DNA from: Candidatus Omnitrophota bacterium
GTDB taxonomy: Bacteria; Omnitrophota; Gorgyraeia; Gorgyraeales; Gorgyraeaceae
NCBI GenBank assembly: GCA_018819285.1
Contig: JAHJQM010000029.1
Coordinates: 280-64,279 of the forward strand
Direction of reading: 5' to 3'
Length of the DNA stretch: 64,000 bases
Part shown: positions 3,001 to 60,972 of the stretch, piece after piece
Numbering within the stretch: the stretch's first letter is position 1
Layout of the letters: the number at the start of each line of letters is the position of its first letter
The notes under the pieces: generated by a model
Seen by the model: only the letters and a program-made list of their open reading frames with translations
Told to the model about the DNA's origin: nothing
Database searches by the model: none
Position numbers and translations under genes: made by a program

Positions 3001-6000
3001 CTGGTCTCCGCCTTTAAACCCTGTAGTATCGCTAAATCTTATCTTTATGCCAAAATTCAGATCAGTATCATTTGCGGAGATTGTCAGTCCTGGGCTAGCA
3101 GGATACCATGTTTCAGTCCATGGCTGCCAGGAAGTAGAAGCCCATTCATTCATAGGGTCAATACATTCCACATAACGATATTTAATGTAAGGCGATGGGG
3201 TGTCATAAGCACCCATGACTCTTACCTGGAATTTTCTCATAACCCTTTCTACGTAGTTTCCGCTCACATCCATCTTTACAGAGCCTGGATTAAGCGGAGC
3301 TGCTTGGGTAGAATGAATATTGATAAAGTCGTATGGCACTCGGTCAACTGTGCCGCTTCCGCCTGCTGTTCCGCTCATGCCAGGATCTTCTGAAAAGAAA
3401 TCTATACCTCTTGTCCTTACAAACTGATCAACTGAAAGAATTCCGCCTCTGCCATCAGCAGAACGGCCGATTTTCATTGTTCCATATATTGACTGATCTC
3501 CTGTATCAATTATTGAAGTTGGAGAATATTTCGGCAAAACTTTTCCTTCTACTAATTGCACAGCGTCAAACCGCGCAAACTCAGTATCATTAGCACCGCT
3601 GGTCTGCTGGCAAAGTAAAAAGATATCGACATCTGAACCAATGCCATCTGTTTTAAAAGAACCTTTATTTTCAACAAAAGTAGAGCTCGAACTTACCAAT
3701 GGTTTAAACGTACCTCTTACAACTGCATTATTTGCATGGTTGGCAGCTGTAGTATTATTAATACCTCGCATAACGTTTGTAAATGAGATATCTGTTTTTC
3801 CTGTGTAATTAAATAATTCATCGTCTATTAATATTGTGCCACCTTGGGGAAAATTTGAAGTGCTTGTCACTAAGATAGTAGCTGTAGAGCTCCCGTCCAA
3901 AGTAGCGCTTGCGCTTACTCCTGATGTTATAGTTGTGCTTGGCACATAGTGGCCTGAGATATCAAGTATTGCCTTTGTAGTAACAGGATTAGTGCTCATT
4001 AAAGCAGCGCCTATAGAATACCATGTATTTGGTTCAAGGCCTGTCATTGTCTGTTTTATGCCTGCGTCATTACCGCTACCAGGCGCCCCTATTAAATAAT
4101 TTAAACCTCTTTTACCAACCCATTCATTTATTGCAACTGCGGATTTACCGTCAAAAAAGTCTGTGTTAAATGTTCCTGTATTGCCGGTTCCTGTCTTAAA
4201 AAGAGCTGGGGAGTGCTGGGCAATCTTTCCTTCTACCCATATCCATTCATCAGGCGCAAAGTTACTCCATCCGCCCCTATACCCTGTAGTAGTGTCATTA
4301 TAAACTCCTGTCTGAGCATAAGATGGGTCATATCCTGCAAATTTTTCAAACCCGGAAAACGCCTCAAATGAACCATTTTTTATTGCATTTCTAAAATCAT
4401 GCGCGAGCCTTCCGCCTGCTTCTATCTGAAATACTGCATCGCCTACTGTCGGGTCATATATATTAAAAGAACCATCTGAAGAGATATCAAAAAGCGCTTT
4501 TTCGTATTTAGCGAAGTCAACGCCTGGCTGAGGAATACTGACCACGCTGAATTTTTGTTTAGAGTAGCTGGCATCGTTCAATACATCAGGATCTAATTTA
4601 ATCGCATAATACTGGTTATATCTTCCTGTATTTACATCCCTATTCACTCCAAAGTTTAAATATGCAGGAGATGCGGTTGGTATGACTGCCTGGTCTGAAA
4701 AAATAAATGCGCCTAAACCATCTGTCCCTGCGTCTGTATCATACCAGAGGTACTGATAATTACCCTCGTTGATACCAAGCTTTAGGACGCCGTCTGAATC
4801 AGAATCTGCGCCGCCGCCTAGCTTAGCAGTATTTGTAGCTATTGCAAGCGATGCGCTTGCATTTGATTGTGTAATGGATGAAAGCGCGTCTCCGCCGCTT
4901 GTATCGATCTGCACATCGCCATCTGCTTCTACTGTCAGATGCGAAAGCGCTGTAGAATCTTGGATCTCGAGAAGGTTTGCGGTCTGTCCTCCCATGCCTT
5001 TTAAAATTAAAGGCGTTGCTGTGGTGTCAGCTGCTGTGATAGTCTGGGTTGATGCAGGAGCGAGCACGGGCACGCCTGTTAATACGAAATCTAATTTGCC
5101 TCCGGCATCATCATAAGTCACGTCAATATTAGTTTCAGTATTGCCAGTTACCATGCCTCCCGCGTAATCTTCAACCTGTTCCTGGTTAAGCACAGTATCT
5201 ACGTACGAAGAAGTTATTGTTATTGTATTTGCTCCATCATCTGGCGTAATAGTAACATTTGGACCTGCTACCAGGTCTATGTTCCCGCCGTCATTTGTAA
5301 CGCTATTTATGGAAGACACGACATTTACATTTAAATCAGCTGCTGTCAAAGAGTCGTTTACCACGGAAGCAGAGTTCACTGAAGCAGTACTTACAAGGCC
5401 TACGTTATCCACGCTAAATTTGGATGAGCCTCCTACCTGAAGGTCTAAAAGTTTATTGCCTGCTCCTGGCGCTGAGGTTTCTGTAACGTTTAATTTTATA
5501 CCTGTGTAATCGCCTGAAGTGGCTTTATTAATCGTAGCTGCTAAATCATACGCCGATTCATCCCCTGTTGCGGCCGAACGCGTTACTGTCGAAGTTACGC
5601 CATAGCCTGATGCTGGAGACAGGTCAAGGTTTATACCACTTGTAACAATACTTGTACCTGCAGTGCTTAAAGTTATATCCCCTGTCACTGTCCCGCCTGC
5701 CAATGGCAGATAATTTGATGCGGTAATATCATTTGCCACTTCATCATCAGCCCATGGATGAGCTGTATTATCCCAGTCTCCTGTAATAGTTTCCGTGGAA
5801 TTTAGTTTCGGAATATTTGATGAATCTGAAAGATCGCTTGAAGCTATTTGAGAACCGTTGATTTTATAGTTTGCGCCTGCAGGAATATTTATGCCGCCAG
5901 TGACCCCTGCTATATCCAGATTACTTGTACCAGAATTAACTTTGATAGTAACGTCGCTGCCTGTGCCGCCTTCAATAACAAGGCCTGCTCCGTTTGCAGC

Positions 6001-8076: not shown

Positions 8077-8084
8077 TTTAACCG

Positions 8085-8100
8085 CCTCCTTTTTAGGAGG
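8085..8100 (-). promoter_or_regulatory. SD/anti-SD hairpin (CCUCCU-AAAA-AGGAGG) at the RBS of the giant gene
   Basis: The plus strand reads cctcctttttaggagg. On the mRNA this is CCUCCUAAAAAGGAGG immediately followed by CGGUUAAA-AUG, so the SD could be sequestered in a 6-bp stem. Confidence 0.4.
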
Positions 8101-8148
8101 TAACTGCAGAGCTCGCTCCATATAGAGCAAGCGCTGTAGTTACACCCG

Positions 8149-8763
8149 TCAAAGCTCTTTGCTATTTTTCTCTTCACCTGTCTTTCCACTGGAAAGCACA
8201 GGAATATTTCCAGGAATAACCTTCCATTTCTTGCTCATCATTTCACCGTTACTTACAGGAGTAGCAGAGCGAACGCCAGTAAACTCCGCGCCAGAATTCG
8301 ATATCAATTTTGCAACCTGTTTTATATTTTTATTATTCGTATAAACCACAAATATAGCAGTTACCAAAACAAATACGGAAATAAAAGATAAAACCGCAAG
8401 GTCATATCTAAATCTCTTAGGTGCGCCAGAAGGAATACTGGCAACCTCGGCATCAATATTGTTCGAGCGGTCAGGAGAGTATGCTGCGGAAGCAGAGTCG
8501 AGAACCTTCTGTCCTAGTATTATCTTTTCCAATTCTTCCAGCCCTTCAAAATTTTTATTCAACTTGTAATATTTTAAATTGGCCTCTTCTTCAGTAATCA
8601 AAATTCCAATATTAGTTAATTTCATAAGCTGCCTTCTCAGTGGGCTTAATGATTCCTCTAATAATCTTTCTAGCTCTCTTAGATAATATCTATCATCTAT
8701 ATTAGAGAGAAATAATTTGAGAATTTTCAATCTGGTCTTTGAATTTACCAATTTCTCAATCAT
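8149..8763 (-). CDS. membrane-anchored winged-HTH transcriptional regulator (ArsR/PadR-like N-terminus, one TM helix, C-terminal extracytoplasmic tail)
   Basis: 204-aa ORF. The N-terminus KTRLKILKLFLSNIDDRYYLRELERLL...RRQLMKLTNIGIL resembles a wHTH. The hydrophobic segment LAVLSFISVFVLVTAIFVVY is a likely TM helix. SD AAGGAGGG precedes the ATG at 8763. It lies directly upstream of, and co-directional with, the giant gene. Confidence 0.55.
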   Translation of the reverse strand: MIEKLVNSKTRLKILKLFLSNIDDRYYLRELERLLEESLSPLRRQLMKLTNIGILITEEEANLKYYKLNKNFEGLEELEKIILGQKVLDSASAAYSPDRSNNIDAEVASIPSGAPKRFRYDLAVLSFISVFVLVTAIFVVYTNNKNIKQVAKLISNSGAEFTGVRSATPVSNGEMMSKKWKVIPGNIPVLSSGKTGEEKNSKEL

Positions 8764-8929: not shown

Positions 8930-9225
8930 CTTTAAAACCTTTTATCTTATCCTTTTGGCAGCTGACAACCATGAGTCCCTCCGGACTATTAGGCTCTAAA
9001 GCTTTGCGCCCCATTCTTTCGAATGGTTTACCCTTATCAATGAGATTTTTTTTATTCCAACTTCTCTCTCTACTCAAAAGTATACCACATATTAGACCTC
9101 TAGTCAAGATGTGTCCCCTCTCGAGTGAAAAAATACCTTTTTAAACGACTTTAACTAGTTTCAAGTATACCACCTCAAAAAATACTTGTCAATATATTGT
9201 GGATATTTTTTCTTAACCCACTATA

Positions 9226-9340: not shown

Positions 9341-9375
9341 AAGTTGACACTCTAACAATGTTAGAGTGTCAACTT
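9341..9375. repeat. REP-A palindrome copy 1 (aagttgacactctaacaatgttagagtgtcaactt, perfect 17-bp arms)
   Basis: 35-nt perfect inverted repeat 10 nt after the rluD stop (9385-9387). It is the consensus member of a dispersed family. Confidence 0.9.
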
Positions 9376-9384: not shown

Positions 9385-10404
9385 TTAGGCAAAAAATTGT
9401 TTTATATCTGATGGGATTTCTGCGGAAAATTCGACTTGAATATTTTTGGAAGGATGGATAAAGCTTATTGATTTTGCATGAAGAGCTTGTCTTGATAATC
9501 CTTGGATACTAGGGCCCTTGTAAAGCGCATCTCCTAAAATCGGATGGCCTATATGCGAGAAATGTATGCGGATTTGATGAGTCCTGCCTGTCTTCGGAGC
9601 CACTTCAAGAATTGTAAAATTTTTTTCTTTATTCCTGGCAATTACTTTATAATGCGTTACTGCTTCTTTTCCAAAATATCTATCAACCACCATTCTCATT
9701 CTATTTTTTTTATCATGATTAACGGGCAGATCTATTATCCCTTCTTCTAGATCAATAATACCTTTTGCAATCGCAATGTAAGTTTTAGCAATGGTCCTAT
9801 TTTTTAACTGGCTTGAAAGTTTGCGTAACGCAACGCCTGTTTTCGCGACAAGCATCACGCCTGATGTATCCTTATCTAACCTGTGAACTATCCCGGGCCT
9901 CAAAACATGTTTTTCGTCTTTTGTTTCACGCGGCTTGTTAAATTCCGTAAGAAAACCTTTGTAGTTTAAGAGCGCGTTTACCAAAGTCCCTGAATAATTT
10001 CCGCATGCCGGATGCACCACCATTCCAGCTGGTTTATTAATTACTAAGATATCTTCGTCCTCATAAATAATATTCAGCGGTAATTTTTCAGCCTTTGGTA
10101 TTTTTTTATCACACACTATAAGGCTTTCTTTTTCCAGTTTTTCTAAATCTATTTCTATTTTATCGCCCGCATTTACTTTGTGGCCCACTTTCACTGCTTT
10201 ACCTTTCAATAAAATTTCACCTTTTTGTATCATCTCCTGGACAATAGTCCTGGATATCTCAAGCTCTGGCTTCATTCCCACCAGATGCTTTAAGCTGACA
10301 TTATCTATCCGTTTGCCGGTATCTTCTAATACTACTTCAAAAGTATACATTTCTATTATTTGCCCTTTCTTAATCAGCCTAACTTTACAAATGGTGCCTG
10401 GCAC
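9385..10404 (-). CDS. rluD: 23S rRNA pseudouridine synthase, RluA/RluD family, with N-terminal S4-like domain
   Basis: Carries IIYEDEDILVINKPAGMVVHP and the catalytic motif HRLDKDTSGVMLVAKT. The true start may be the internal MYTFE. Confidence 0.85.
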   Translation of the reverse strand: MPGTICKVRLIKKGQIIEMYTFEVVLEDTGKRIDNVSLKHLVGMKPELEISRTIVQEMIQKGEILLKGKAVKVGHKVNAGDKIEIDLEKLEKESLIVCDKKIPKAEKLPLNIIYEDEDILVINKPAGMVVHPACGNYSGTLVNALLNYKGFLTEFNKPRETKDEKHVLRPGIVHRLDKDTSGVMLVAKTGVALRKLSSQLKNRTIAKTYIAIAKGIIDLEEGIIDLPVNHDKKNRMRMVVDRYFGKEAVTHYKVIARNKEKNFTILEVAPKTGRTHQIRIHFSHIGHPILGDALYKGPSIQGLSRQALHAKSISFIHPSKNIQVEFSAEIPSDIKQFFA

Positions 10405-10426
10405 GAATTGTAAAGTTAGGGATATT

Positions 10427-13400
10427 TTATACTATGGCTCTTAAGAAAGCTATAAGAAATTTCAGAGAGACTCGTATAAATAATTTAACAAGGGGCTTAT
10501 CTTTTATTAATTCTGCTATTGGCGGGCTAAAACGGTAATAGAGATTAACGAATTCTTTACCCAGTTTTGATTTTAATAGGCACTGATCTCTGAATTCGCG
10601 CAAGGCTACCACTTCTTTAGCATCAGTAGAGCCAAATGCTGCGGTAGCGATGAAACAACTACCGCCGCCACCGCCACTACTATCTTGCTGTCCAGGATTC
10701 TCAGGCTGAGCAACATTTTCATTATTTTTTTCAGCGCCTGCGATTCCGAATATAGTAAAATGGCTTGTCTTTACTGTAACTATATTTTCTTTTGGAAATA
10801 CAAAACTGCCTGAAAGAATTTTCCATTCAACATTTTTTTCATCATACCAGTATACCTCCAAGGTTAACTCATCAATATTTTTATCATCTACAATACCATC
10901 TCCGTTTTCGTCAATATATGGTATAGATATAATCATTTCCTTATTAAAAGGGCCTTTGTGGTTTTCAAATTGATATTCCCGGTATTCTCCTATAGGCTTA
11001 TTTTGGTTAATATTGATTTCTCTCTGAATCTGGCTTGATTCCAATCTTTTTATATTAACAATGTCATCTTGCTCCAATATATCTGCCGGCATAACTAAAG
11101 ATGTTTTATCTGATAATTCTATTCTGCCTATTTTATACTTATATACATTATTTGGCGAGACGATTGGCTTTTTATCATTATTTTTTCCATTTGAAACATA
11201 GATAGTTTCTTGGCACGACATAATAACACGGCCTATTGTCCTGACATCAAGATTTGTCATGTAGGTTCCTGAATCATTATATGTAAATTCCGCCTGAGGA
11301 ACCAGAGTTACGAGGTCAATTATCCCATCATTGTCAAAATCCCATAAATATTCCACATCGCTTATTTCATCTTCAATTTCAAAGGAAAATCTTACTGCAA
11401 GGGGTGCATTGCCCTTTTGCGGATTGATAATAATTTTGCCTTTTTTAATATCCTCTGGATCAAAAATCCCGAATCTAATTTCTGATTTGGCCTGGTTGGA
11501 TAAATTGTTTGAGTCTGTAACGCGTACAGTAGGCGTGTAAACGCCTGGCTCGCAATAAGTGTGTTTAATTATGCCAGGGCTTAATGAAGTATAATCGAAT
11601 ACGCCATCGCCTTCAAAATCCCATTGATATTTTTGGATTAAATTGCTGCTATTTACAGCAGCTTCAAAATTTATTTCCAGAGGGACATTTCCTGTAACAG
11701 GCGATACTGAGGAACTAACGCTCAAAACTTTAGGGTCTTCTATCTCAATTAAAGCCTTCTCTGAGCCAGTTAATCCGTCAAAGCTGGTAACCCTGAACTC
11801 CGCATTATATTTTCCTGGAAGGGCATAGGTTTTAACAACCTCCCCTGATTCAGATGAATTAGCTTCAAAAACGCCGTCACCATCGAAATCCCATTCATAT
11901 TTCGATACGCCTTGAGGGCAAAATGCATCGCCTTTAAAAAATACCTTGCAAGGCGCAACGCCTTCTAAAGGAAACGCATTTAAATAGACGCCTGGCGCGT
12001 CAGGATTTTTAGCTACATTAATAGTAACTGTATAGGTATTCGTGATTCCGTTTTTATCTGTTACGCGTAACTTTGCAGGAAAGCTGCCTTCGCCTGTATA
12101 TATAAAAACAACCTCCCCTGATTCAGGCGAACTGAAATCATATATGCCTTTGCCATCAAAATCCCATTCGTATTTAACTATTCTTTTGAACTTACTGATA
12201 GCTTCTGACTTAAAATGCACTTCGAGCGGGGCCATGCCATTTAAAGGTTCAGCCAGCGACTTTGCTTCCAAGATTATAGGCAAAGAATCGGAAACTATTA
12301 TTTTAACTTTTTCTGAGGCCTTGACTTTGCCATCGCTGACAATAAATGTTACAAAATATTCTCCTGTTTGATTTTCTACCGGCTTCCAGAAAAATCTTTT
12401 TACCCATGGATCAAAACTGGCTCCGCGAGGAAGCGTTTCTGCAGAATAAATAAGCAAATCTCCGTCTATATCAACGGCTTCAACAAAAAATTCTAAACTA
12501 TCTCCTGCTATTATTTCTTTTTCGCCTATAGTAAATAAAACGGGCTCGTGATTTTTCTTTGGAATTTCTTTTTCGCCCACGTCAAAAAATATTGAACCCT
12601 GGCCGATCTCTCCAAATTTATACATAACCCTGTAAATCCCATGCCTGTCTAATTCAGGAGAGACTATTTTTTCGAATTTATTGACGCCTTTTTGCAGATT
12701 TACGTCTTCTTCAATGATATTCACGGCATCTGAATCCGGCTTTATTAAATACGCGCTTAACTTGATAGAACATGCTTCGCCTGATTCAATCTTCCAATTA
12801 AGAGCCACGTTTTCGCCGTCTTCGTAAATATCCTTATCGCATCCCGCTTTAATGATTTTAATGGAAGATGTTTCCGGCTTTTCCCCGTTTATTAAATAAG
12901 AATTTAAATAAAGGGATTTTCCGGATTCAAAATATATCCCATAATAAATTTTCTCATTGTCGTTCAGGCCGGGGATATTGAATTCGAGATCCTTTTCTTC
13001 ATTCAGGACAAAATCTATCTTCTTTTCATAATCACTGCATCTGGCCTCTGCAAAAAGCTTCAAGCCCTTCGCTGAGCTTAAATTTTTAACATTGAGCTTA
13101 AAGATACCGGCCTCTGCCTCAGCCTCAGCTTCAACCTTTACGCCTATTATTTTAAAATTTACCTTATGCGTCTCGTCTTTAAATTTATACTCTGCTTCAT
13201 AATTCCCTTCATCCGCATCTTCCGGGATTAAAAATTCGAACGCTATTTCTTTATCCTTGCCAGATCCTAATAATTCTGATCGCGTTTCATTGATTAGATC
13301 CTGGGATTTAAAATTTACTTCGCATTTTCCCTGCGCCTCGCCTTCATTTATAATCCTAAATCTAAATTTGGCTTTTTCTCCTGCGTTAAAACTAAGGCCT

Positions 13401-16400
13401 TCGTCTTCCAAATAGAAAACCTTAAAAATTGGCGCGCTAATTTTTTCGCCTATATAAAAGGCTTTTACGAACTTAACTGTTTCCTGAAAAATAGGGGATT
13501 TTAATGTTGCCTCTATGTAATATTTTCCTTTTCCCGCAATAGCCGGAATTTCAAAATTAATCACTGATTCATTTTCTATATTAGAAATTTCCTCGCGCTT
13601 TTGAAAGCATGCAAAATCGCTGCCAGAATATTCATCGCCAGAAGTATAAACTGCGAGAAGCTTATATCTTAAAAAAGAACTCTCGCTATTATATCTGTCG
13701 TAGACCTGGATATAATAATTAGACGGGTTAGCGGTTTCAAATTCCATTGTAACATCTTCGCCTGAGGCGCCGCCTTTTATGTCAATGTTCTGGCCAGACT
13801 CTTTATAAAGTTTCATATAAGGCCTTACATTGACCGGCATGTCTTTTAAATAAACAGTTATTTTGCCGGCGTCTGGTATAGATAATTTATAAAAATCGGA
13901 ATCTGCTTTGGTCGCAACTGTGGCAAAGTAATTTTTACCAAAATCAATAAGCCTTGCAGCCTCTTTTGTTTCATTGGGCTCGTATTCATCCAGGGTTTTT
14001 ATAAAATTAAAATTCAGGGAGTAGCTATTTAGCGAAGAGACATTTCCATACCAGTCTCTTACTAAAAGATAATAAAGGCCGGGTTTGTCAAATTCTGTCT
14101 CAAGGATTACATTTTCATTGGCTGAGCCGCCTTTCATTGAGATTACTTTGCCTGATGTATCATAAATTTTTATAGAAGGCCTCAGGCCTTGCGGCACTTC
14201 GTACATTTTTATATATAAAACGCCCTTTTCCTGGATATTGAATTTAAAAAAGTCTTCATCTCCGGTACTATAGATTTTACCGTGTATTCTTGAATCCACA
14301 TCTATCTCGTTTGCGTTTGTAAAAGCGCTGTTAGGCTCTATCTCCTCAGAATCCTGATATATAGCCGGGTCCAATGTATCATTAAAAATATTTTCGCCTT
14401 CGTTTATCTGTATATTTTTTGATATATTGCCAGGCGACGCAGTTAAAAGATAATTTCCAACAGGCACATAGATAAATTTAAACAGGCTATCGCCTGAAGT
14501 TACGGCAAATCTAGTTGAGGTATTCGAACTGGCAACGTTCACAGGTTCCAGCGTAATGGTCGAACCTATTGAATTTTCAATAACGCCTGACAGATTTCCA
14601 TATTTTGACGGCGTTAAATTTATATCCAGATTGTTGTCTCCTGGAAAAATTTCAATATCTTTTGAAACAGTGTCGAAAGCCGGGGCTTTTATACTGATAA
14701 CTCTATGACCTTTATCAAGGCCTTTTAACCTGTATTTGCCGTCTTTATTTGTATAAATGCCTTCTATTATGGCGCCTTTTATAACAGCGCCGTTATCATC
14801 TCTTACTGTCCCATATAAATCCCATGAATTCAATTCCGGAAAAACTCTAATATCAAGATAACCTTTTTCTATTATTTCTCCGATATTTTTAATTTTAACG
14901 CTCGCAGATATAAGCTGATTCTTCGGATAATTATTTTCCATATTTACAATTAAATCCACGTTCAGGCCAGGGATACTGTAAGATTCTGTAGCGATTTCTG
15001 TATCTTCGCCATCACTTAAAGGCTTTGGGCCTTCGAAACATATGCTTTTAAATCCAATAAGCCTGGAATTCGAAAATGTGCTAAGTTTAGCTTTGCATGT
15101 TCCTCTTGAAATATCCTCTGGTATAGCGAAACTCTGAGGCCAGGACCCGGAGCCAAGCTCTGCTAATTTGATCTCCGAGGAACAATAATAAATTTGTTTG
15201 TTGCTAGAGTCGGTTATATCCAGGATGGTCAGGATATTAAGCGAGACGCTGGTTTTATTTTTAAAATTTACGTTTATTGAGGCTATTTCGCCAGGCAAAT
15301 ACTGCTCTTTATCACTAGACATATCTATATCCAAGCTTGGCTCAAAGACATTAATGCCCCGCTCTGCCTTGCCTATAAAAACATTCTGCGAAGAATAAAA
15401 ATAAGAACTCAACAGGTCTGTTGAGCTAGCGATTATTTCCTTATCGAATGAAATTGTTTTGCCGGCAGGAACTACGACTATGTCATTATATTCTATTTTA
15501 TGATGCGGGAGTATTGCTTTATATTTTATCGACTCATCCCTGGCAGTATTATTTCTCATGTGAAATGTAAACGTGGCAACGTTGCCAGAGATATAATTTT
15601 CACTGTCGCTTGTTATGTCAAAGGTAAAATCCGGGTTTTGTGAAGCGTCTGGCGGTGGCTTGGCAAAAGAAAAATAAATTCCTTCTGCTTGAGGCTGGAT
15701 GGCTTTAGAATCAATGTCGTAAAGAATGTAGTCCACAGAATAGATTCCTGGTTTTTCCAGGGCCTGGCCTAACTTATACGCCGCTTCGTTTGAAATATTC
15801 CTCTCTAAAACCTCACCTTCAGGCGACTTTAATATCATTTCTATCTTGTTAAAATCAAGGTTTGTCTGTATTGGGATTTCAAAACTCTCGCCAGTTTTAT
15901 ATTCTGGCAAGTTTTTGCCGGACTTTGCCCATCGAAGGAGATCTCTTACGAGATTAATCTCTGAAGAACTTGCCTGGCCATTTAAATAGCCCCAGTCTGA
16001 ATACATAGAAGCTACTATGACGACGCCTTTTCCGAAATTATACAAAAGCATTGCAGGCATCTGGTTTTTTGACCTTCTAAGTAAAATTGCGGCGCCATCC
16101 GGATAATCCGTAAAATATCCGTCCAGTTTTATATCAGGGTATAATTCATTTTGCGAACTAAGTACCTGGTGGAAATTTTCAATATAGGCGGCTTTTGTAT
16201 GACAGGACGCATCTTCCTGCCAGCCGTATGCATTTAGTCTTTCTCCTGGAAGGGCGTTAAAATCATAGCCATATTGCTGGGAAAAACATATAATAGCGCC
16301 TCCATTTTTTACATACTCTGAAAGTTTATTTTTGAATATCGCTGAATGCGAAAGGCCTGAAAGCCCGCCCGTAGGAATTACCAGGACCTTTTGTTCGTCA

Positions 16401-17821
16401 AGTATATAAGGCTCGAACGTATGGTCTATAATCCTGACCGGCTCTCCGACTTTTTCTATTATTAACTTTCTCATCTCATTGTAATAACCATTTGCCAATA
16501 CAGCTATATCAGGAGATTCAAGGTATTCCCTGGACGCATATATATAATAATCATGGAGAAGTTTATTTTTCTGGCCCAGGGCTTCTTCCCATTCATTGAT
16601 AATATTATCTACGTTAGCGCCTGTTGAAATTTCCAATTGAGCGTCTTCAAATAGAGTTAATATTTCCCAGTATTTCATTAGATATGCCTTATTTTTCCTG
16701 ACCGCAATCCTGAGATATAAATCAAAAAGCTTCCTGGGGCTCATATCTATGCCTTTGGCAAAATCTACTGTATCGAATGTATCATCAGGATGGTCTATGC
16801 CAGGGCCTGATAAAAATGCCAACTGTTTATTCTTATAAGGCTTCAACCTCTTGAAAAAAATGCTTTCTCCGCCTTTTTCCAGTTTATCAAGCATGACTGC
16901 TAAAACTGTTTCACTATTGCAGAAATTAAAATGATTCACGCCCAAAAAATACTCATACCCTATGTCTTCTCTTTTTTCTATAACAGGGCTCCAGTCGCCT
17001 ACTATCAAGTCTTCGCTGCCGATTGCAATAAATGTCTTTATGCGCTTATCAGGCCCAAGATCCTGTATGCTTTTTAAGAACATGCTGTCCGGAGATAGTT
17101 CTTTTCTCAAGGCTTCGGATTCCATGCGGCTGCCAGGTATCCATATTTTATTATCAGCTACTTCCAATGCATATTGGCAGGCAGTCATGCTCTGGGCAAA
17201 AACCGATGGAATTACGCCCAGGATATTTTTGATATTTGCTACAAGGCTTGTAGAGCCGTTGTTGGGCGGGGCAAGTTCTATTATTGTCTCTATATTGTCT
17301 CTATAAGGGACTAAACCGAGCGAGCGCGAATACGCTGTTACCGCAAGACCTCCTGTAGAGTGGGTTATTACATCTGCCTTTTTATAATTTCTATCCGGGA
17401 GATTCTTATTTAGATAATCTATCCCTTCTTTTAACGCTACGCCTACATCATCGCCTAAATCCCTTACACCATAACCCCATGAATTGCCAATCATAGGCGC
17501 GTCTATCTTATGATCTCCATTTGTATCAACCGCATTTCCGCGCATATCAACGACAATTACATCGTAGCCGCGCTCAGTTAATTTTTTTACATAATTCTTA
17601 TTCTTATCACTCCAAACTTCTCCGCTAGAGTTAAAGCCGTGGACTAATAATATAGGCCTTTCTTTAATATCATTTGCAGCGTTTTCGTAACAATAAAAAT
17701 TTATTTTTGCGCCTTTGGTGCTCTCAACAGTAAAAGGCTTGGCAGGCTCATCCAATGCAAAAATATTATTTGCAAAAAAGATGAAAAATATGCCTGATAT
17801 TAAATGAATGATCAGCTTCAT
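10427..17821 (-). CDS. giant (2,464 aa) secreted multidomain protein with lipase/esterase, GATase1/ThuA-like, CARDB/Ig-like, four PPC, carboxypeptidase-regulatory-like and four PKD domains, and a C-terminal CFI-box-like putative sorting domain
   Basis: Signal peptide MKLIIHLISGIFFIFFANNIFA. Lipase-like nucleophile VITHSTGG around aa 155 (compare B. subtilis LipA AHSMGG). VLVIPTGG...GGAIICF matches a GATase1/ThuA-like domain. Repeated ...DxDFYKL / DEDFFKF PPC-like modules. An EAEAEAEA linker. Four PKD signatures: YEWDFDGKG, YEWDFDGDG, YQWDFEGDG, YLWDFDNDG. C-terminus is GGGGGSCFIATAAFGS...REFRD...YYRFSPPIAELI, read at 10621-10680. Confidence 0.85.
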   Translation of the reverse strand: MKLIIHLISGIFFIFFANNIFALDEPAKPFTVESTKGAKINFYCYENAANDIKERPILLVHGFNSSGEVWSDKNKNYVKKLTERGYDVIVVDMRGNAVDTNGDHKIDAPMIGNSWGYGVRDLGDDVGVALKEGIDYLNKNLPDRNYKKADVITHSTGGLAVTAYSRSLGLVPYRDNIETIIELAPPNNGSTSLVANIKNILGVIPSVFAQSMTACQYALEVADNKIWIPGSRMESEALRKELSPDSMFLKSIQDLGPDKRIKTFIAIGSEDLIVGDWSPVIEKREDIGYEYFLGVNHFNFCNSETVLAVMLDKLEKGGESIFFKRLKPYKNKQLAFLSGPGIDHPDDTFDTVDFAKGIDMSPRKLFDLYLRIAVRKNKAYLMKYWEILTLFEDAQLEISTGANVDNIINEWEEALGQKNKLLHDYYIYASREYLESPDIAVLANGYYNEMRKLIIEKVGEPVRIIDHTFEPYILDEQKVLVIPTGGLSGLSHSAIFKNKLSEYVKNGGAIICFSQQYGYDFNALPGERLNAYGWQEDASCHTKAAYIENFHQVLSSQNELYPDIKLDGYFTDYPDGAAILLRRSKNQMPAMLLYNFGKGVVIVASMYSDWGYLNGQASSSEINLVRDLLRWAKSGKNLPEYKTGESFEIPIQTNLDFNKIEMILKSPEGEVLERNISNEAAYKLGQALEKPGIYSVDYILYDIDSKAIQPQAEGIYFSFAKPPPDASQNPDFTFDITSDSENYISGNVATFTFHMRNNTARDESIKYKAILPHHKIEYNDIVVVPAGKTISFDKEIIASSTDLLSSYFYSSQNVFIGKAERGINVFEPSLDIDMSSDKEQYLPGEIASINVNFKNKTSVSLNILTILDITDSSNKQIYYCSSEIKLAELGSGSWPQSFAIPEDISRGTCKAKLSTFSNSRLIGFKSICFEGPKPLSDGEDTEIATESYSIPGLNVDLIVNMENNYPKNQLISASVKIKNIGEIIEKGYLDIRVFPELNSWDLYGTVRDDNGAVIKGAIIEGIYTNKDGKYRLKGLDKGHRVISIKAPAFDTVSKDIEIFPGDNNLDINLTPSKYGNLSGVIENSIGSTITLEPVNVASSNTSTRFAVTSGDSLFKFIYVPVGNYLLTASPGNISKNIQINEGENIFNDTLDPAIYQDSEEIEPNSAFTNANEIDVDSRIHGKIYSTGDEDFFKFNIQEKGVLYIKMYEVPQGLRPSIKIYDTSGKVISMKGGSANENVILETEFDKPGLYYLLVRDWYGNVSSLNSYSLNFNFIKTLDEYEPNETKEAARLIDFGKNYFATVATKADSDFYKLSIPDAGKITVYLKDMPVNVRPYMKLYKESGQNIDIKGGASGEDVTMEFETANPSNYYIQVYDRYNSESSFLRYKLLAVYTSGDEYSGSDFACFQKREEISNIENESVINFEIPAIAGKGKYYIEATLKSPIFQETVKFVKAFYIGEKISAPIFKVFYLEDEGLSFNAGEKAKFRFRIINEGEAQGKCEVNFKSQDLINETRSELLGSGKDKEIAFEFLIPEDADEGNYEAEYKFKDETHKVNFKIIGVKVEAEAEAEAGIFKLNVKNLSSAKGLKLFAEARCSDYEKKIDFVLNEEKDLEFNIPGLNDNEKIYYGIYFESGKSLYLNSYLINGEKPETSSIKIIKAGCDKDIYEDGENVALNWKIESGEACSIKLSAYLIKPDSDAVNIIEEDVNLQKGVNKFEKIVSPELDRHGIYRVMYKFGEIGQGSIFFDVGEKEIPKKNHEPVLFTIGEKEIIAGDSLEFFVEAVDIDGDLLIYSAETLPRGASFDPWVKRFFWKPVENQTGEYFVTFIVSDGKVKASEKVKIIVSDSLPIILEAKSLAEPLNGMAPLEVHFKSEAISKFKRIVKYEWDFDGKGIYDFSSPESGEVVFIYTGEGSFPAKLRVTDKNGITNTYTVTINVAKNPDAPGVYLNAFPLEGVAPCKVFFKGDAFCPQGVSKYEWDFDGDGVFEANSSESGEVVKTYALPGKYNAEFRVTSFDGLTGSEKALIEIEDPKVLSVSSSVSPVTGNVPLEINFEAAVNSSNLIQKYQWDFEGDGVFDYTSLSPGIIKHTYCEPGVYTPTVRVTDSNNLSNQAKSEIRFGIFDPEDIKKGKIIINPQKGNAPLAVRFSFEIEDEISDVEYLWDFDNDGIIDLVTLVPQAEFTYNDSGTYMTNLDVRTIGRVIMSCQETIYVSNGKNNDKKPIVSPNNVYKYKIGRIELSDKTSLVMPADILEQDDIVNIKRLESSQIQREININQNKPIGEYREYQFENHKGPFNKEMIISIPYIDENGDGIVDDKNIDELTLEVYWYDEKNVEWKILSGSFVFPKENIVTVKTSHFTIFGIAGAEKNNENVAQPENPGQQDSSGGGGGSCFIATAAFGSTDAKEVVALREFRDQCLLKSKLGKEFVNLYYRFSPPIAELIKDKPLVKLFIRVSLKFLIAFLRAIV

Positions 17822-18486: not shown

Positions 18487-18496
18487 GCCCCCTTCA

Positions 18497-18533
18497 AAGT
18501 TGACACTTCTGTCATTGTCAGAAGCGTCAACTT
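18497..18533. repeat. REP-A copy 2 (aagttgacacttctgtcattgtcagaagcgtcaactt; 2 mismatches in arms)
   Basis: Lies between the XRE stop (18543-18545) and the SD of the lipoprotein gene. Confidence 0.85.
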
Positions 18534-18542
18534 TGACTTAAG

Positions 18543-18896
18543 CTATCTCCTATTTCTTGATTTTCTGCGCTCTTTATACAATGTATTGATTACTGGATAA
18601 TAAATGTTTACAGCGGCAGAGCTAGACTCTTTAACTATATTGATTATTTTCTTTTTCTTGTAGTCAGATGAGTTTAGTTTTTCATCATTTAATAAAAGTT
18701 CGTAGATATCTACTTCTAAGGCCTCTGCAATGCGGGAAATCATATAAAAGGTAGGGAGTTTTTTGCAGCTTTCAATTCTGCTTATATATGTAGGATGAAC
18801 ATTTACTTCTTCTGCTAATCTTAACTGCGTCCAACCTTTGGAGTTTCGAATTGTCCTGATTCTATTGGCTAGAATACTGCTATCATTTGCTATGCT
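18543..18896 (-). CDS. XRE-family helix-turn-helix transcriptional regulator
   Basis: MSIANDSSILANRIRTIRNSKGWTQLRLAEEVNVHPTYISRIESCKKLPTFYMISRIAEALEVDIYELL is a classic XRE HTH. The track ORF starts at 19031 and overlaps REP-A copy 3, so the likely true start is ATG 18896 (MSIAN) with an AAAGG SD. Confidence 0.7.
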   Translation of the reverse strand, partial: SIANDSSILANRIRTIRNSKGWTQLRLAEEVNVHPTYISRIESCKKLPTFYMISRIAEALEVDIYELLLNDEKLNSSDYKKKKIINIVKESSSAAVNIYYPVINTLYKERRKSRNRR

Positions 18897-19013
18897 CATA
18901 AAATTACCTTTCATTATAAATAGACAGAGTGATAGAGTGAATAAAAATAAGGTCATATAATAATGTCTATTGGACACACTGTTATGATATGTTAAAAAAT
19001 ATGGCCGGCTTCT

Positions 19014-19048
19014 AAGTTGACACTCTGACAATGTTAGAGTGTCAACTT
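19014..19048. repeat. REP-A copy 3 (aagttgacactctgacaatgttagagtgtcaactt); contains the RAYT stop codon
   Basis: The RAYT ORF ends ...CCA AGT TGA, with TGA being rc of tca at 19042-19044 inside the palindrome arm. Confidence 0.85.
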
Positions 19049-19938
19049 GGCGTATAGCTAGACTGAAGCTTATAAATGGCCTGACGGGTCAAATTTAACT
19101 TTTCTGCAATTTCAGAAACATGAAAACCTCTTGATTTTAACTGTTCTATCAAAAACATTCTTGCCTTAATCTCTTGAGGATTAGTAAGTCTTCCTTTTTT
19201 CCTTAATTGCTCTATCCGCTTTTCAATATCGTAATCGTCTGGAAGATTGCGCTCTATGCGCCATTCTTTATTTTTTTCTCTCAACATCCTTGCCATCGCA
19301 TCCAGGGCATCAGGTTTTTCAAATACATTACTTATCCTGCCGACATTAAATCCTTTTAACAGATTTCTATATTTCATCTTGGCGCGACATATATCATTAT
19401 CCAATATTTCAAGAATAAATTTATAATCCACAAACGTCTCCTTTTCTGCATCGTCTAAAAATAATGCGCACGAAGACCATCTGTAATCAACAGGATTATT
19501 AGCCAATTCTGCTTTTGCAGGATTTACATGTATATACAATGATGATGCTAAAAGATAACTATCATCAAAACACAATGCCGATCTATATGCTCCGCAAAAT
19601 ACGTGCCCTTTTCTCTGGTATTTTTTATTGAAATATACAGCATATCGTTGCAACAGCTTTTTCATTATATCCGACATATTTGATCCAAGAAACTTTAATA
19701 GTAAATGAAGATGATTTGACATAAGCACAAAACTTAATACATTACACTTAAACTTACAGAGAACTTCTTTTATCAAATGAAGCATATAAAGATAATCTGC
19801 GTCTTCTAAAAATAGGGGCTCTGTTCCTGATGCATGCTGAGTAATATGACTTATAGCGCCTTCAAAACAATATTTATTTCTAGCCCTGAAGTAACGCTTC
19901 ACCTCCCCCCGCTCTATCAATTCAATTATATCTGCCAC
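19042..19938 (-). CDS. IS200/IS605-like Y1 HuH transposase, REP-associated tyrosine transposase (RAYT)-like, with a C-terminal ~120-aa HTH-containing extension
   Basis: LFLEDADYLYMLHLIKEVLCKFKCNVLSFVLMSNHLHLLLKF is the HuH motif NHLHLLL. ...LQRYAVYFNKKYQRKGHVFCGAYRSALCFDDSYLLASSLYIHVNPAKAELANNPVDYRWSSCALF matches the Y1_Tnp fold, with a catalytic Tyr candidate in RYAVYFNKKY. The C-terminal GFHVSEIAEKLNLTRQAIYKL is HTH-like. Likely start is GTG at 19938 after AGGAGG (rc of 19945-19950). The track start at 19962 is a TTG inside REP-A copy 4. Flanked by REP-A copies 3, 4 and 5. Confidence 0.8.
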   Translation of the reverse strand: MADIIELIERGEVKRYFRARNKYCFEGAISHITQHASGTEPLFLEDADYLYMLHLIKEVLCKFKCNVLSFVLMSNHLHLLLKFLGSNMSDIMKKLLQRYAVYFNKKYQRKGHVFCGAYRSALCFDDSYLLASSLYIHVNPAKAELANNPVDYRWSSCALFLDDAEKETFVDYKFILEILDNDICRAKMKYRNLLKGFNVGRISNVFEKPDALDAMARMLREKNKEWRIERNLPDDYDIEKRIEQLRKKGRLTNPQEIKARMFLIEQLKSRGFHVSEIAEKLNLTRQAIYKLQSSYTPS

Positions 19939-19960
19939 AATACACCTCCTCTGGTTAAAC

Positions 19961-19995
19961 AAGTTGACAAACTAACATTGTAAGAGTGTCAACTT
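19961..19995. repeat. REP-A copy 4 (aagttgacaaactaacattgtaagagtgtcaactt)
   Basis: Upstream of the RAYT start. Confidence 0.85.
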
Positions 19996-20077
19996 ATCTG
20001 GGTTTCTATCATATATGACACATTTGGAAACCGTTTTCTTTCAATTTTTTTAAAGTTTTTAATTACATAGCTTGCAT

Positions 20078-20112
20078 AAGTTGACAAACTAACATTGTAA
20101 GAGTGTCAACTT
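20078..20112. repeat. REP-A copy 5, identical to copy 4
   Basis: Ends 8 nt after the thrC stop (20120-20122). Confidence 0.85.
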
Positions 20113-22868: not shown

Positions 22869-22945
22869 TGGTCGGGACGGCTGGATTTGAACCAGCGGCC
22901 CCCTGAACCCCATTCAGGTGCGCTAGCCAGCTGCGCCACGCCCCG
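22869..22945 (-). tRNA. tRNA-Pro (anticodon GGG), CCA encoded
   Basis: Hand-folded minus-strand sequence. Acceptor CGGGGCG pairs with CGTCCCG (one G-U) and has C1-G72. U8. D-stem GCGC/GCGC with an AGCTGGCTA loop. Anticodon stem CCTGA/TCAGG, loop AUGGGGU, G37. T-stem GCTGG/CCAGC with a TTCAAAT loop. A73 then CCA. C1-G72 plus A73 is the bacterial tRNA-Pro identity. Confidence 0.8.
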
Positions 22946-29119: not shown

Positions 29120-29154
29120 AAGTTGACACTCTAACATTGTCATGTTGTCAACTT
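29120..29154. repeat. REP-A copy 6 (aagttgacactctaacattgtcatgttgtcaactt; inner part diverged)
   Basis: The proC stop TGA (29140-29142) lies in the centre of the element. Confidence 0.8.
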
Positions 29155-36165: not shown

Positions 36166-36200
36166 AAGTTGACACTCTAACAATGTTAGAATGTCAACTT
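36166..36200. repeat. REP-A copy 7 (aagttgacactctaacaatgttagaatgtcaactt; 1 mismatch)
   Basis: Sits in the 48-bp ftsW-murG intergenic space, 3 nt after the ftsW stop and just before the murG SD. Confidence 0.85.
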
Positions 36201-38577: not shown

Positions 38578-38616
38578 CAACTTTACACAAGCGGCATTGT
38601 CGGTTGTGTAAAGTTG
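38578..38616. repeat. REP-A variant (caactttacacaaGCGGCATTGTCGGttgtgtaaagttg; 13-bp perfect arms)
   Basis: Arms AACTTTACAC versus AAGTTGACAC of the main family share the ACAATGT/ACATTGT core. Ends 8 nt after the mraY stop. Confidence 0.75.
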
Positions 38617-42635: not shown

Positions 42636-42651
42636 ATATACCTATCTTAAC

Positions 42652-42688
42652 AACTTGACACTTTTGACATTGTCAGAAGTGTCAACTT
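42652..42688. repeat. REP-A copy 9 (aacttgacacttttgacattgtcagaagtgtcaactt); contains the ftsI stop
   Basis: ftsI ends ...GCA AGT TGA with TGA at 42682-42684. The inner sequence is close to copy 2. Confidence 0.85.
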
Positions 42689-44400
42689 GCTGGCTTTTTA
42701 TTATTTTTCTCTGCCACTTTTTTGTCTTTTGGCCAGATCTTGTAGTAGCTCATGAGCTCTGCGGCTACTTTTTTAAATACAGGCGCACAGACTACTCCTC
42801 CATAGTAAATCGGCCGCGGCTCGTCCATTATTACAACTATAACAAACTTTGGATTATCGGACGGCACAAAGCCTATAAATGAGGCTGTAAATTTGCTATG
42901 CGAATAAGTGCCGTTAGACTCTACTTTTTGGGCTGTGCCTGTTTTACCTGCAGGAAAATATCCTTCAACCTCTGCAAGTTTTGCTGTGCCGCTATCGACA
43001 ACGCTTCTTAATATAGTTCTCATTTCTCTGGCAGTTTCTTCTGAAATCACCCTCTGGGGTTTCTTTGGCTCAAATTTCTGTATAACATTACCTGTGCAGT
43101 CCTGTATCATATCAACTATTCTTGGCTTTACGAGATTGCCTCCGTTTGCAAGGGTTGACATTGCGCAGGCAAGCTGAAGAGCTGTTACGGTCACTTCCTG
43201 GCCCATTGAAATACTGCAGAGAGAAAGTTTTGACCAGGTATTGGGATGAGTAGTGATGCCATTTACTTCTCCTGGAAGTTCGATGCCTGTCTTTTCTCCA
43301 AATCCAAACTTCTTTATATATTTATACAGCCTGTCTTTTCCGAGCCGCTGGGCTGCTTTCATTGTGCCGATATTAGAAGAATATTTGATCACATCTCTAA
43401 ATTCCAGCCAGCCATGAGGTTTATGATCATGATATTTATGGCCGCACCATTTATATTCGCCGTTCTCGCAGAAAAACTTGTCGCTGGGCTGAACTGCCTT
43501 TTCTTCAAGGAGGCTGGAGGCTGTTATTATTTTAAAACTTGAGCCAGGTTCAAAAAAATCGCATATGGCTCTATTTCTTCTAGAGTCAGGGGGTTCAGCC
43601 TTGGCATTATTCGGGTCAAAATTAGGCCTATTGCTAAGCGCAAGTATATCTCCTGTGAAAGGGTCCATTACAATGATACACGCGCCCTTGGCGTGATATT
43701 TTTTAAAACCATTTTCCAGTTCGCGTTCTGCAAACGACTGGATTAAACTGTCTATGGTGAGTACAAGATTATCTCCGTCAATCGGCTGTATTTCCTTATA
43801 TTCATACCCAGGGACTTCGCGTTGCTTGGCGTCTCTTATCGCATATCTATAGCCTATAACGCCTTTTAAATATTTATCGAATTTCAGTTCCAGGCCTTCA
43901 AGGCCGTTATTATCTATGTCTGTAAAACCAAGGATATGGCTTGCGATTACACCATTAGGATAGGCCCTATGGGGCTCTTTGATAAAATCTATACCTTTAA
44001 TATTAAGGGCGCGGATAACCCTAGCAGTATCCTGGGAAACCTTACGGCCCAACCAAACAAAACCTCTTTTCTGGTTGAGTTTCTTATATATCTCATCCTG
44101 GCTTAGACCAAGGATAGACGCAAGTTTCTGGCTGTCTATGCCTTTATCTTTTACCTTGAAAGGTTCGGCAAATATTGAAACCAGATTTATGTTTATAGCG
44201 AGTTCTTTTAGGTTACGGTCGTAAATTACGCCGCGTTTAGGGAGAAGCGGCACCAAAAGCCTATATTGATTTGAAGCAATATTTGACAGGGATCTTGCTG
44301 CGCCTAGCTGTACAAAAACTAGCCTGACACATAGAAGCACGAACGCTATGATTAAAGTATATAGGACTTTCCTTATACGGGAAGGGGTTCCTTTGTACAC
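42682..44400 (-). CDS. ftsI: penicillin-binding protein (FtsI-type transpeptidase)
   Basis: N-terminal TM helix, SSFK (SxxK), SSN and KTGTA motifs. Confidence 0.85.
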   Translation of the reverse strand: MYKGTPSRIRKVLYTLIIAFVLLCVRLVFVQLGAARSLSNIASNQYRLLVPLLPKRGVIYDRNLKELAININLVSIFAEPFKVKDKGIDSQKLASILGLSQDEIYKKLNQKRGFVWLGRKVSQDTARVIRALNIKGIDFIKEPHRAYPNGVIASHILGFTDIDNNGLEGLELKFDKYLKGVIGYRYAIRDAKQREVPGYEYKEIQPIDGDNLVLTIDSLIQSFAERELENGFKKYHAKGACIIVMDPFTGDILALSNRPNFDPNNAKAEPPDSRRNRAICDFFEPGSSFKIITASSLLEEKAVQPSDKFFCENGEYKWCGHKYHDHKPHGWLEFRDVIKYSSNIGTMKAAQRLGKDRLYKYIKKFGFGEKTGIELPGEVNGITTHPNTWSKLSLCSISMGQEVTVTALQLACAMSTLANGGNLVKPRIVDMIQDCTGNVIQKFEPKKPQRVISEETAREMRTILRSVVDSGTAKLAEVEGYFPAGKTGTAQKVESNGTYSHSKFTASFIGFVPSDNPKFVIVVIMDEPRPIYYGGVVCAPVFKKVAAELMSYYKIWPKDKKVAEKNNKKPAS

Positions 44401-60913: not shown

Positions 60914-60972
60914 CCCACCCTCTCTTTCCTCAAATATTAGTCCTATCTACTTATTCCTTATTCTCCCACAAC

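Follow-up and report, generated by a model that had tools for sequence, protein, structure and literature searches.

The question raised by this locus is whether a gene resembling those for REP-associated tyrosine transposases (RAYTs; REP, repetitive extragenic palindrome) forms one system with the palindromes scattered around it, and how such a system would relate to those already described. The locus lies in a 64,000-nt stretch of a Candidatus Omnitrophota genome (assembly GCA_018819285.1, contig JAHJQM010000029.1), referred to here as the window, and comprises a gene for a Y1 HuH transposase with a C-terminal helix-turn-helix (HTH) and a palindrome family designated A. Conserved catalytic residues, a TnpAREP fold, bracketing of the gene by a dispersed palindrome, co-diversification, hairpin-preserving covariation and a fixed locus together lead us to conclude, with good confidence, that these are the two halves of a coupled RAYT-like/palindrome system, in which a domesticated single-copy Y1 HuH endonuclease/transposase is associated with a cognate family of REP-like palindromes.

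The transposase and its C-terminal extension

The features of the gene and of the palindromes that bracket it are the following:

19042..19938, minus strand: RAYT-like Y1 HuH transposase gene with C-terminal HTH; 298 aa from GTG, stop codon TGA at 19042-19044
19945..19950, minus strand: Shine-Dalgarno sequence AGGAGG, 6 nt before the GTG, as read from the sequence
19444..19878, minus strand: Y1 HuH catalytic core, residues ~21-165; HuH H76-L-H78 at 19705-19713, Tyr135 at 19534-19536, WSS as residues 154-156
19060..19179, minus strand: C-terminal HTH, residues ~254-293, with recognition helix LTRQAIYKL
20013..20044, minus strand: conserved leader/promoter-region motif TTGAAAGAAAA-N11-13-TGTGTCWWAT, situated 84-90 nt ahead of the start, with one of the upstream palindromes on either side
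19014..19048, unstranded: family-A palindrome directly 3' of the gene, holding its stop codon; single-stranded DNA (ssDNA) hairpin of -13.6 kcal/mol, z -6.5
19961..19995, unstranded: degenerate family-A palindrome in the 5' leader, 23 nt upstream of the start codon; hairpin of -7.3 kcal/mol
20078..20112, unstranded: family-A palindrome 7 nt past the thrC stop, 35/35 identical to the copy at 19961

The open reading frame (ORF) delimited mechanically, 19042..19962 on the minus strand, encodes 306 aa, and its TTG start falls inside the upstream palindrome. The likely start codon is GTG at 19938; a GGAGG-type motif ahead of the start is kept across syntenic loci, and a 298-aa nr entry, 'transposase [Candidatus Omnitrophota bacterium]', is 100% identical over its full length. 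An earlier reading of this DNA made without database searches (the sequence-only reading) had recorded a 299-aa ORF, which is real, with a length of 298 aa from the GTG. One copy of the gene was counted within the 64 kb of the window.

The Y1 transposase hallmarks pointed out in the sequence-only reading are borne out by motif, profile and fold. The protein contains SNHLHLLL (H76/H78), SLYIHVNP (Y135), DYRWSS and LTRQAIYKL, and the Pfam model PF01797 (Y1_Tnp), which that reading had proposed as a check, is matched above its gathering threshold (38.6 bits against 23; residues 56-145 of the 306-aa ORF). Y1_Tnp is also matched by 33 of the 33 homologues in the protein alignment (45-80% identity), in which H76, H78, Y135, N139 and W154-S155-S156 are invariant and P140 is nearly so. 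The tyrosine motif Y135-I-H-V-N139-P140 is the Y---NP of class 2 and not the Y---Q of IS200 (motif definition in PMC6006769). The best NCBIfam model is REP_Tyr_transpos (NF047646; E 1e-15), and the IS200 transposase model (NF033573) is not reached, with 16.8 bits against a cutoff of 55. The AlphaFold2 model has a mean predicted local distance difference test score (pLDDT) of 79, with 85-96 in the core, and its best Foldseek match in the PDB is 4er8_A, the Escherichia coli TnpAREP bound to a REP hairpin (template modelling score TMt 0.71, root-mean-square deviation 2.2 A); the TnpA structures of IS608, ISDra2 and IS200 rank after 4er8, the Foldseek probability being 1.00 for 4er8, 2a6m, 2vjv and 2f4f. 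The Pfam match, the invariant residues and the fold match thus identify the N-terminal 165 residues as a RAYT-type HuH/Y1 domain with intact catalytic residues.

Profile searches and structural modelling of the C-terminal extension indicate a small three-helix HTH that follows a helical linker. In the window protein alone HTH_11, HTH_28, HTH_8 and HTH_23 are sub-threshold (19.5 bits against 25 for HTH_28); across the 33 members HTH_23 is matched by 27 (best E 1.1e-8) and HTH_28 and HTH_7 by 23 each. Comparison of the extension profile with PDB sequences retrieved the HTHs of serine resolvases, IS21 IstA, ComA/RcsB (LuxR-type) and UPF0122. A separate AlphaFold2 model of the extension reaches a pLDDT of 67.5 overall and 77-89 in the last 50 residues; a Foldseek search of the PDB with it gave no significant match (best E 0.18), the local matches being the HTHs of resolvase, IstA, RcsB and ParB. 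The recognition helix is well conserved across the family as (L/I)(S/T)R(Q/K)x(I/V)Y.

The extension had been described in the sequence-only reading as unusual and possibly DnaA-C-like. A C-terminal HTH is in fact a known hallmark of TnpAY1 subclass 2.1, also known as TIRYT or Group 1 (PMC6006769, PMC3733652), and the DnaA proposal has indirect support from relatives of the window protein, though none from the protein itself. Bac_DnaA_C (PF08299) has no match at E <= 1 in the window protein and is outside the 25 families matched by most members, and DnaA is absent both from the PDB profile results of the extension and from the top 50 Foldseek matches of the C-terminal model; identity with DnaA domain IV was rejected, as neither profile nor fold backs it for the window protein. 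At E <= 1e-30, an exhaustive profile search delimited a large family with 1,887 cluster representatives. All ten members checked at a slightly greater distance (313-328 aa) combine Y1_Tnp with Bac_DnaA_C at E <= 1e-3 (seven of the Bac_DnaA_C matches lie above the Pfam threshold and three below), and their alignment reads NHYH, FQ, YIHLNP and WSS. The two families align by hhalign over 280 columns, through the HTH (probability 100%, E 1.2e-58), and the HTH is placed opposite the Bac_DnaA_C domain of these next-closest relatives.

Palindromes in the window and around homologues

Family A (unit sequence TAAGTTGACACTCTAACAATGTTAGAGTGTCAACTTA) was defined by the pattern AAGTTGACA-N17-TGTCAACTT, 35 nt in length, with the unit edges falling between T and AAGTTGACA and between TGTCAACTT and A. 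The pattern occurs eight times in the window, compared with 0.00 expected from 100 shuffles, and two variants (18494 and 42651) bring the number to ten copies or variants, about one per 6 kb. Three of them bracket the gene, at the positions and with the stop-codon overlap and identical upstream pair that the sequence-only reading had given. The other seven are dispersed, six of these more than 9 kb away (all unstranded):

9341..9375: perfect 17+1+17 palindrome, 9 nt past a gene's 3' end; -15.8 kcal/mol
18494..18536: variant palindrome in the gap that separates the XRE stop from the start of the following gene
29120..29154: copy in a short intergenic gap
36166..36200: copy 2 nt past a stop codon
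39750..39784: copy with a 7-nt overlap with the upstream gene's stop
42651..42689: variant copy (CAACTTGACAC...) that overlaps a stop codon
50119..50153: copy with compensated inner arms AAAC...GTTT and a 7-nt stop overlap; -11.7 kcal/mol

As ssDNA the copies fold with -12 to -17 kcal/mol (z -5 to -9), except for the degenerate upstream pair. The genes between 7.7 and 61 kb of the window are nearly all on the minus strand, and the palindromes occupy very short co-directional gaps, either at most 9 nt from the upstream gene's stop or overlapping it by 7-8 nt. Over these 53 kb of minus-strand genes with short gaps, the palindromes therefore lie inside apparent long co-directional transcription units.

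The sequence constraints on the unit were examined in a metagenome scan in which both outer boxes were fixed and the 17 inner bases left free. At least 119 stretches were found; among the matches listed, one encodes a close orthologue of the transposase (79.5% identity). Across 90 distinct units the inner positions pair at 5.96 of 8, compared with 3.60 when they are combined with the arms of other units, and none of 500 shuffles was as high; fully compensated inner-arm variants include CTCTGACA/TGTCAGAG, AAACTGACA/TGTCAGTTT and ACACCCCAT/ATGGGGTGT. The unit edges are sharp: position -1 is T in 61% of the flanks and G in 1%, and positions further out are unconserved. When the copies were placed relative to the stops of ORFs with 100 codons or more, 82 of 141 fell between -36 and +15 nt, with a peak at -7 (28 cases), where the stop is the TGA inside TTGACA, another at -2 (12 cases), where TAA is made with the preceding T, and a minor class at -15, where the stop is the TAA in CTCTAACA. 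It follows from this placement that each frame, from either side, receives a stop from the unit, which would render end-of-gene insertions harmless. No T-tract stands behind the hairpins and no Rfam family matches the palindromes. A GT[AG]G tag is absent from the unit, and among the lineage variants GTAG appears once only (L001), apparently by coincidence. A likeness of the outer box to a DnaA box (TTTACAC against TTATNCACA), compared by eye, was discarded as too weak.

A scan of one genome per species yielded 299 relatives. The best 80 loci, denoted by L-numbers, served as the comparison set and represent Omnitrophota, Desulfobacterota, Thermodesulfovibrionia, Stahlbacteria, NPL-UPA2 and other groups; most matches cover about the full query length. 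Under strict criteria (arms of at least 14 nt, at most two mismatches, within 100 bp of the gene), palindromes were found upstream at 28 of the 53 loci scored and downstream at 21 of 53, where the background expects 2.4% per side. Under relaxed criteria nearly all loci have a palindrome on both sides. The correlation of palindrome and transposase, which the sequence-only reading had put forward for testing, thus holds across related genomes and phyla.

The palindrome sequences vary by lineage (AAGTTGACAC..., AACAACTT(T/G)ACA..., AAGGTTACAC... and TAACGTTACAAA..., with TTTACCCAAAAC... and TTACCGATTTC... as the Desulfobacterota types). They have a TTNACA or TTACC outer box in common, which changes slowly and in step with the coarse phylogeny, and many of those in Omnitrophota share the centre CA-W-TG. 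Where a metagenome-assembled genome (MAG) carries two paralogues, two distinct types of palindrome are present (L033/L044, L037/L046 and L032/L073). Extra copies away from the gene are found at L049 (13), L078 (10), L055 (8), L073 (8) and L022 (7).

Further palindromes were noted beside these. GC-richer hairpins with CGTAGG...CCTACG, a GTAG-like foot, occur at L005 8719-8753, L002 4854-4888 and L003 231-280, those of L005 and L002 in the hom-thrC gap, which in the window measures 4 nt and therefore holds no counterpart. These hairpins may belong to a distinct REP family of the canonical GTAG type within the phylum. A family B (CAACTTTACAC...GTGTAAAGTTG, 39-43 nt) lies just past gene 3' ends in the window at 10378-10420, 38578-38616 and 46439-46477, with an outer box resembling the RAYT-flanking type of L003, L004 and L005; it could be a sub-family read by the enzyme of this locus, have been left behind by an earlier RAYT allele, or belong with a paralogue encoded elsewhere in the genome. 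Family C (...CTGTGCTCAAGACC T GGTCTTGAGCA...; hairpin of -17.3 kcal/mol) is unrelated to A and B and lies at 49385-49429 and 60968-61004, with a partial inverted copy at 49366-49381. The full family C palindrome has these two window copies and none in any other locus compared, and no cognate gene was found for it.

The fixed locus, possible palindrome turnover and neighbouring genes

The order gpsA-pilZ-hom-thrC-RAYT-XRE-lipoprotein-giant gene is conserved, wholly or partly, in about 15 Omnitrophota species, which indicates that the RAYT gene is vertically inherited at a fixed site and is not an active insertion sequence (IS). ThrC is 78-93% identical across the syntenic species and RAYT identity goes down to 46%; the RAYT gene evolves faster than its neighbours. 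The palindrome sites around it (after thrC, before RAYT, after RAYT and after XRE) are largely conserved and follow the local sequence type, with some sites empty in some genomes. A palindrome is also present in the syntenic loci at the leader position matching 19961..19995, the copy at 20078..20112 has an orthologue in L001, L003, L004 and L005, and the site of 18494..18536 is filled in L004, L005 and L011 and empty in L001, L003 and L009.

The relationships of gene and palindrome do not always follow those of the genome. By housekeeping genes (93-96%; Hom 95%, GpsA 96%) L005 is the closest genome, yet it has a RAYT of 64% identity and another palindrome type, whereas L001, with more distant housekeeping genes, has a RAYT 71% identical and the palindrome type of the window. 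This incongruence suggests that the RAYT allele has been replaced, along with its palindromes, at the fixed locus. At an orthologous gap 9 kb away (29120..29154; flanking ORFs 88% and 94% identical) the window carries AAGTTGACA... and L005 carries AACAACTTAACA..., and the L005 type there, AACAACTT(A/G)ACA, is the one that flanks its own RAYT. Past the orthologues of gene 9385-10404 three palindrome types are found (window 9341-9375, L005 20463-20503, L003 20357-20399), those of L005 and L003 differing from the type that flanks their RAYT, which may mean that a genome has several families and that some insertion sites are preferred. Taken together, the differences at these few orthologous sites point to turnover at preferred sites tied to the resident enzyme.

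The leader motif TTGAAAGAAAA...TGTGTCWWAT occupies the same position in the window, L001, L003, L004, L009 and L013. Its internal spacing is unlike that of a simple sigma-70 promoter, and scans for sigma-70 promoters and terminators around the gene gave nothing above shuffled expectation. The XRE neighbour named in the sequence-only reading is present:

18543..18899, minus strand: likely extent of the XRE-family HTH gene, which starts with ATG, encodes 118 aa and adjoins the transposase gene on its downstream side; Pfam HTH_3, 50 bits

XRE follows RAYT in ten syntenic Omnitrophota loci, with 46-89% identity; no other locus has it next to RAYT. It was rejected as an integral partner, being a clade-limited neighbour with its own conserved upstream region, and is probably a lineage-specific neighbour and not a core part of the system; a regulatory link between XRE and RAYT is possible. 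The XRE upstream region contains the palindrome TGTCYAATAGACA, to which the TGTGTCWWAT upstream of RAYT, offered as a shared XRE operator, bears a loose resemblance only. A small palindrome, TGTC(C/T)AATAGACA, lies upstream of XRE at 18964-18976 (minus strand) beside a TATAAT-like box, is kept in the window, L001, L004 and L005, and looks like an autoregulatory operator.

Elsewhere in the window a c-di-GMP-I riboswitch (8954-9042, minus strand; Rfam RF01051, 71 bits, E 6e-12) precedes a 204-aa gene at 8149-8763, and a tRNA gene (22872-22945, minus strand) lies between the PilZ-like gene and gpsA. A giant minus-strand ORF of more than 2,700 codons spans 1-8139 and runs past the window start (GC 44% against 37%); it accounts for the seeming absence of ORFs from the first 8 kb, and the interpretation of this part as non-coding was discarded. 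A second giant gene at 10427-17821 (minus strand) encodes 2,464 aa with an N-terminal signal peptide and repeated domains.

Competing explanations and known systems

By analogy with the chemistry of IS608 TnpA and TnpAREP, the palindromes would extrude as hairpins on ssDNA, for example at the replication fork, and the Y1 core would bind the hairpin, cut beside it via a 5'-phosphotyrosine on Y135 and religate; such cleavage and religation might copy, move or replace the 35-37-nt units. Because the recognition helix is well conserved and the outer box changes slowly, the HTH may read that box (TTGACA / TTTACA / TTACC), either in the double-stranded stem foot or in duplex form, and an HTH bound to the copy in its own 5' leader may autoregulate the gene. 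Since the units provide stop codons in every frame, they would be tolerated at the 3' ends of genes within operons, and there they would probably act as RNA hairpins. Our confidence in each of these steps is considerably lower than in the coupling of gene and palindromes. A broader proposal, which we put forward tentatively as somewhat less than probable, is that a subclass 2.1-like branch drives a widespread and hitherto unrecognised class of GTAG-less, nearly perfectly symmetric REP-like elements, in which a change of RAYT allele leads to in-place replacement by the new cognate type. If true, it would imply site-specific hairpin exchange at orthologous sites instead of random transposition, with the HTH reading the outer box and the gene held long-term at one chromosomal locus, in Omnitrophota, Desulfobacterota, Nitrospirota and other poorly studied phyla.

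Several observations weigh against a coupled system. The REP_Tyr_transpos match, at 57.8 bits, is under the equivalog cutoff of 80, the palindromes are without the GT[AG]G tag read by TnpAREP, and the two copies upstream of the gene make a weak hairpin only. Several loci have just two flanking copies within ~20 kb. The published survey detected no REP-like sequences for subclass 2.1 (PMC6006769). The orientation of the flanking copies, scored at 30 loci, is inverted at 16, direct at 13 and tied at one, a pattern from which classical REPtrons and TIRtrons differ. The correlation was examined at gene-carrying loci; the support consists of sequence and predicted structure; and the role of the HTH is one that we infer. 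An early impression from L013, L021, L037 and L046 that flanking copies are always inverted was rejected by the 30-locus scoring. The window's own flanking copies fit the inverted orientation better (29 against 25), and orientation is only weakly defined since each unit is nearly perfectly symmetric. The sequence-only reading holds up in its main lines, but its label of a textbook REP/RAYT signature must be abandoned in view of the missing tag, the score below the cutoff and the inconsistent orientation.

Three other explanations were considered. The palindromes might be operator sites of a regulon, bound as duplex by a dimeric HTH protein (transposase-derived or XRE) that controls transcription or operon polarity, their uniformity within a genome resulting from selection for binding. 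The almost perfect two-fold symmetry of the units with their conserved outer box and CA-W-TG centre, the conserved HTH of the protein, the typical autoregulatory position of the copy between the promoter-region motif and the ribosome-binding site, and the XRE regulator that adjoins the gene in this clade are all consistent with this explanation. It is nevertheless unlikely, because the inner arms keep complementarity and not sequence, as expected for hairpin pairing but not for base-specific reading of a duplex, and because copies are located at gene 3' ends, in short gaps and over stops rather than in promoter regions. Moreover, the HuH and Tyr residues are invariant across phyla, which would be unexpected in a pure DNA-binding regulator, homologues are flanked by palindromes in phyla without an XRE neighbour, and orthologous sites vary in palindrome presence.

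That palindrome, gene and palindrome move as a whole, as an autonomous IS (TIRtron) whose solo ends or derivatives resembling miniature inverted-repeat transposable elements (MITEs) are the scattered palindromes, is very unlikely and largely refuted by synteny, since the gene stays between thrC and XRE/lipoprotein in ~15 species with identity down to 46%. The repeats do bracket the gene at fixed short distances like IS ends, some MAGs have two paralogues, and Group 1 RAYTs show some IS-like traits, including plasmid presence (PMC5581495). However, there is one copy of the gene in 64 kb, paralogues from one MAG have diverged and differ in their palindromes, a close gene copy occurs in one of the at least 119 palindrome stretches, among the matches listed, and the IS200 model falls far short of its cutoff. 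Least probable, in our judgement scarcely credible, is that the palindromes act at the RNA level, as terminators, stabilisers or processing sites, and that they arise and become uniform through host recombination or gene conversion, with the gene a bystander. Such elements would account for the stable hairpins and for the clustering of copies near the stops of co-directional genes (the 82 of 141 noted above), but not for the flanking of one gene family on both sides by unrelated palindromes in at least four phyla, far above the 2.4% per side expected, nor for a palindrome type that tracks the RAYT allele and not the housekeeping background; the absence of a T-tract after the hairpins and of an Rfam family also argues against them. 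The coupled RAYT-like/palindrome system thus remains the best explanation.

REP/RAYT systems have been studied almost solely in Proteobacteria, with GTAG-tagged REPs, and subclass 2.1, the largest non-IS Y1 branch and one with a C-terminal HTH, has been without a known DNA partner, for which the co-diverging dispersed palindromes provide a candidate substrate. A Y1 core plus HTH acting on a 35-nt hairpin would be a simple symmetric biochemical target, and the fixed locus offers a natural series of allele/palindrome pairs that could show how a repeat family is replaced upon a change of specificity. Since the palindromes overlap stops and sit inside operons, they have to be taken into account when genes are called and operons and terminators predicted in uncultivated phyla. 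In the literature searched, no paper was found that links Omnitrophota with extragenic palindromes, nor any later work on subclass 2.1.

As judged from published motif and domain descriptions, the protein appears to fall in or next to TnpAY1 subclass 2.1 (TIRYT, Group 1). Quentin, Siguier, Chandler and Fichant (2018) divided the TnpAY1 superfamily into 12 subclasses, of which 2.1 is the second largest, with a median length of 238 aa, the motifs NHVH/NH[YF]H, W[EQ]/FQ and YIELNP/Y[IV]HLNP, an 'SS' tail and, at the C-terminus, an HTH that resembles Bac_DnaA_C, HTH_23 or HTH_28; these were proposed to derive from a single ancestral HTH as its long and short versions (PMC6006769). Subclass 2.1 was equated with the TIRYTs of Di Nocera et al. 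2013 (PMC6006769, PMC3733652), whose genes have flanking terminal inverted repeats (TIRs), often with GGGGWSAS, a few of them self-complementary and in moderately abundant families (PMC3733652), and it corresponds to the Group 1 RAYTs of Bertels et al. 2017, whose flanking 16-mers are mildly over-represented (PMC5581495). The family described here shares with subclass 2.1 the Y motif YIH[LV]NP, the WSS tail, N-H-u-H, the C-terminal HTH, a low copy number, a long protein and flanking repeats, the last as in the few self-complementary TIRYT repeats of Di Nocera, and all four subclass 2.1 motifs are found in its DnaA_C-bearing relatives. It differs in having NH[LIFM]H (middle residue mostly L/I) and F-[CS]-G where 2.1 has FQ, in flanks that are dispersed, near-perfect palindromes of 33-50 nt with a TTNACA/TTACC box and without GGGGWSAS, and in its hosts (Omnitrophota, Desulfobacterota, Nitrospirota and others), which are mostly outside the published surveys.

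Comparison with E. coli TnpAREP (RayT/YafM; 4ER8, PMC3479197; Nunvar 2010, PMC2817692) reveals the best structural match of the core, with HuH and Y---NP, and a single-copy gene bracketed by cognate palindromes that are dispersed at gene 3' ends. TnpAREP, however, has 165 aa, no HTH and ~15% identity to the protein described here, and the E. coli REPs occur as inverted pairs of imperfect hairpins, each with GTAG as its 5' tag, whereas the units here are tagless, near-perfect, with a single central base and in mixed orientation. Like the REPIN-RAYT systems of Pseudomonas (Bertels & Rainey 2011, PMC3116915; bioRxiv 10.1101/2021.07.10.451892), the system has a vertical single-copy RAYT at a fixed locus and a separate repeat family for each RAYT paralogue, with repeat and RAYT co-diverging; unlike them, its protein belongs to another subclass and has the extra HTH. 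A REPIN consists of two inverted REPs and a spacer of tens of bases, while the unit here is one long hairpin with a 1-5-nt centre, closer to the 'double foot' type of subclass 2.4. With the TnpA proteins of IS200/IS605 (IS608, ISDra2) it has in common the HuH/Y1 fold and probably also the ssDNA-hairpin chemistry, but its protein has Y---NP and not Y---Q, and its gene is not multicopy, has no tnpB partner and is syntenic across species. Because the REP tag is missing, the score lies below the equivalog cutoff, the TIR motif of subclass 2.1 is absent, that subclass has been reported as REP-less, and the symmetry and stop overlap of the units are unusual, the system is a variant within the world of RAYT/REP and TIRYT/TIRtron elements and not a plain member of it. 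It extends a known theme and is not a new kind of system: gene and palindromes are arranged in an ordinary REP/RAYT-type manner, the HTH tail was already known, and what is new is the occurrence of REP-like palindromes in a protein subclass and in phyla from which they had not been reported earlier.

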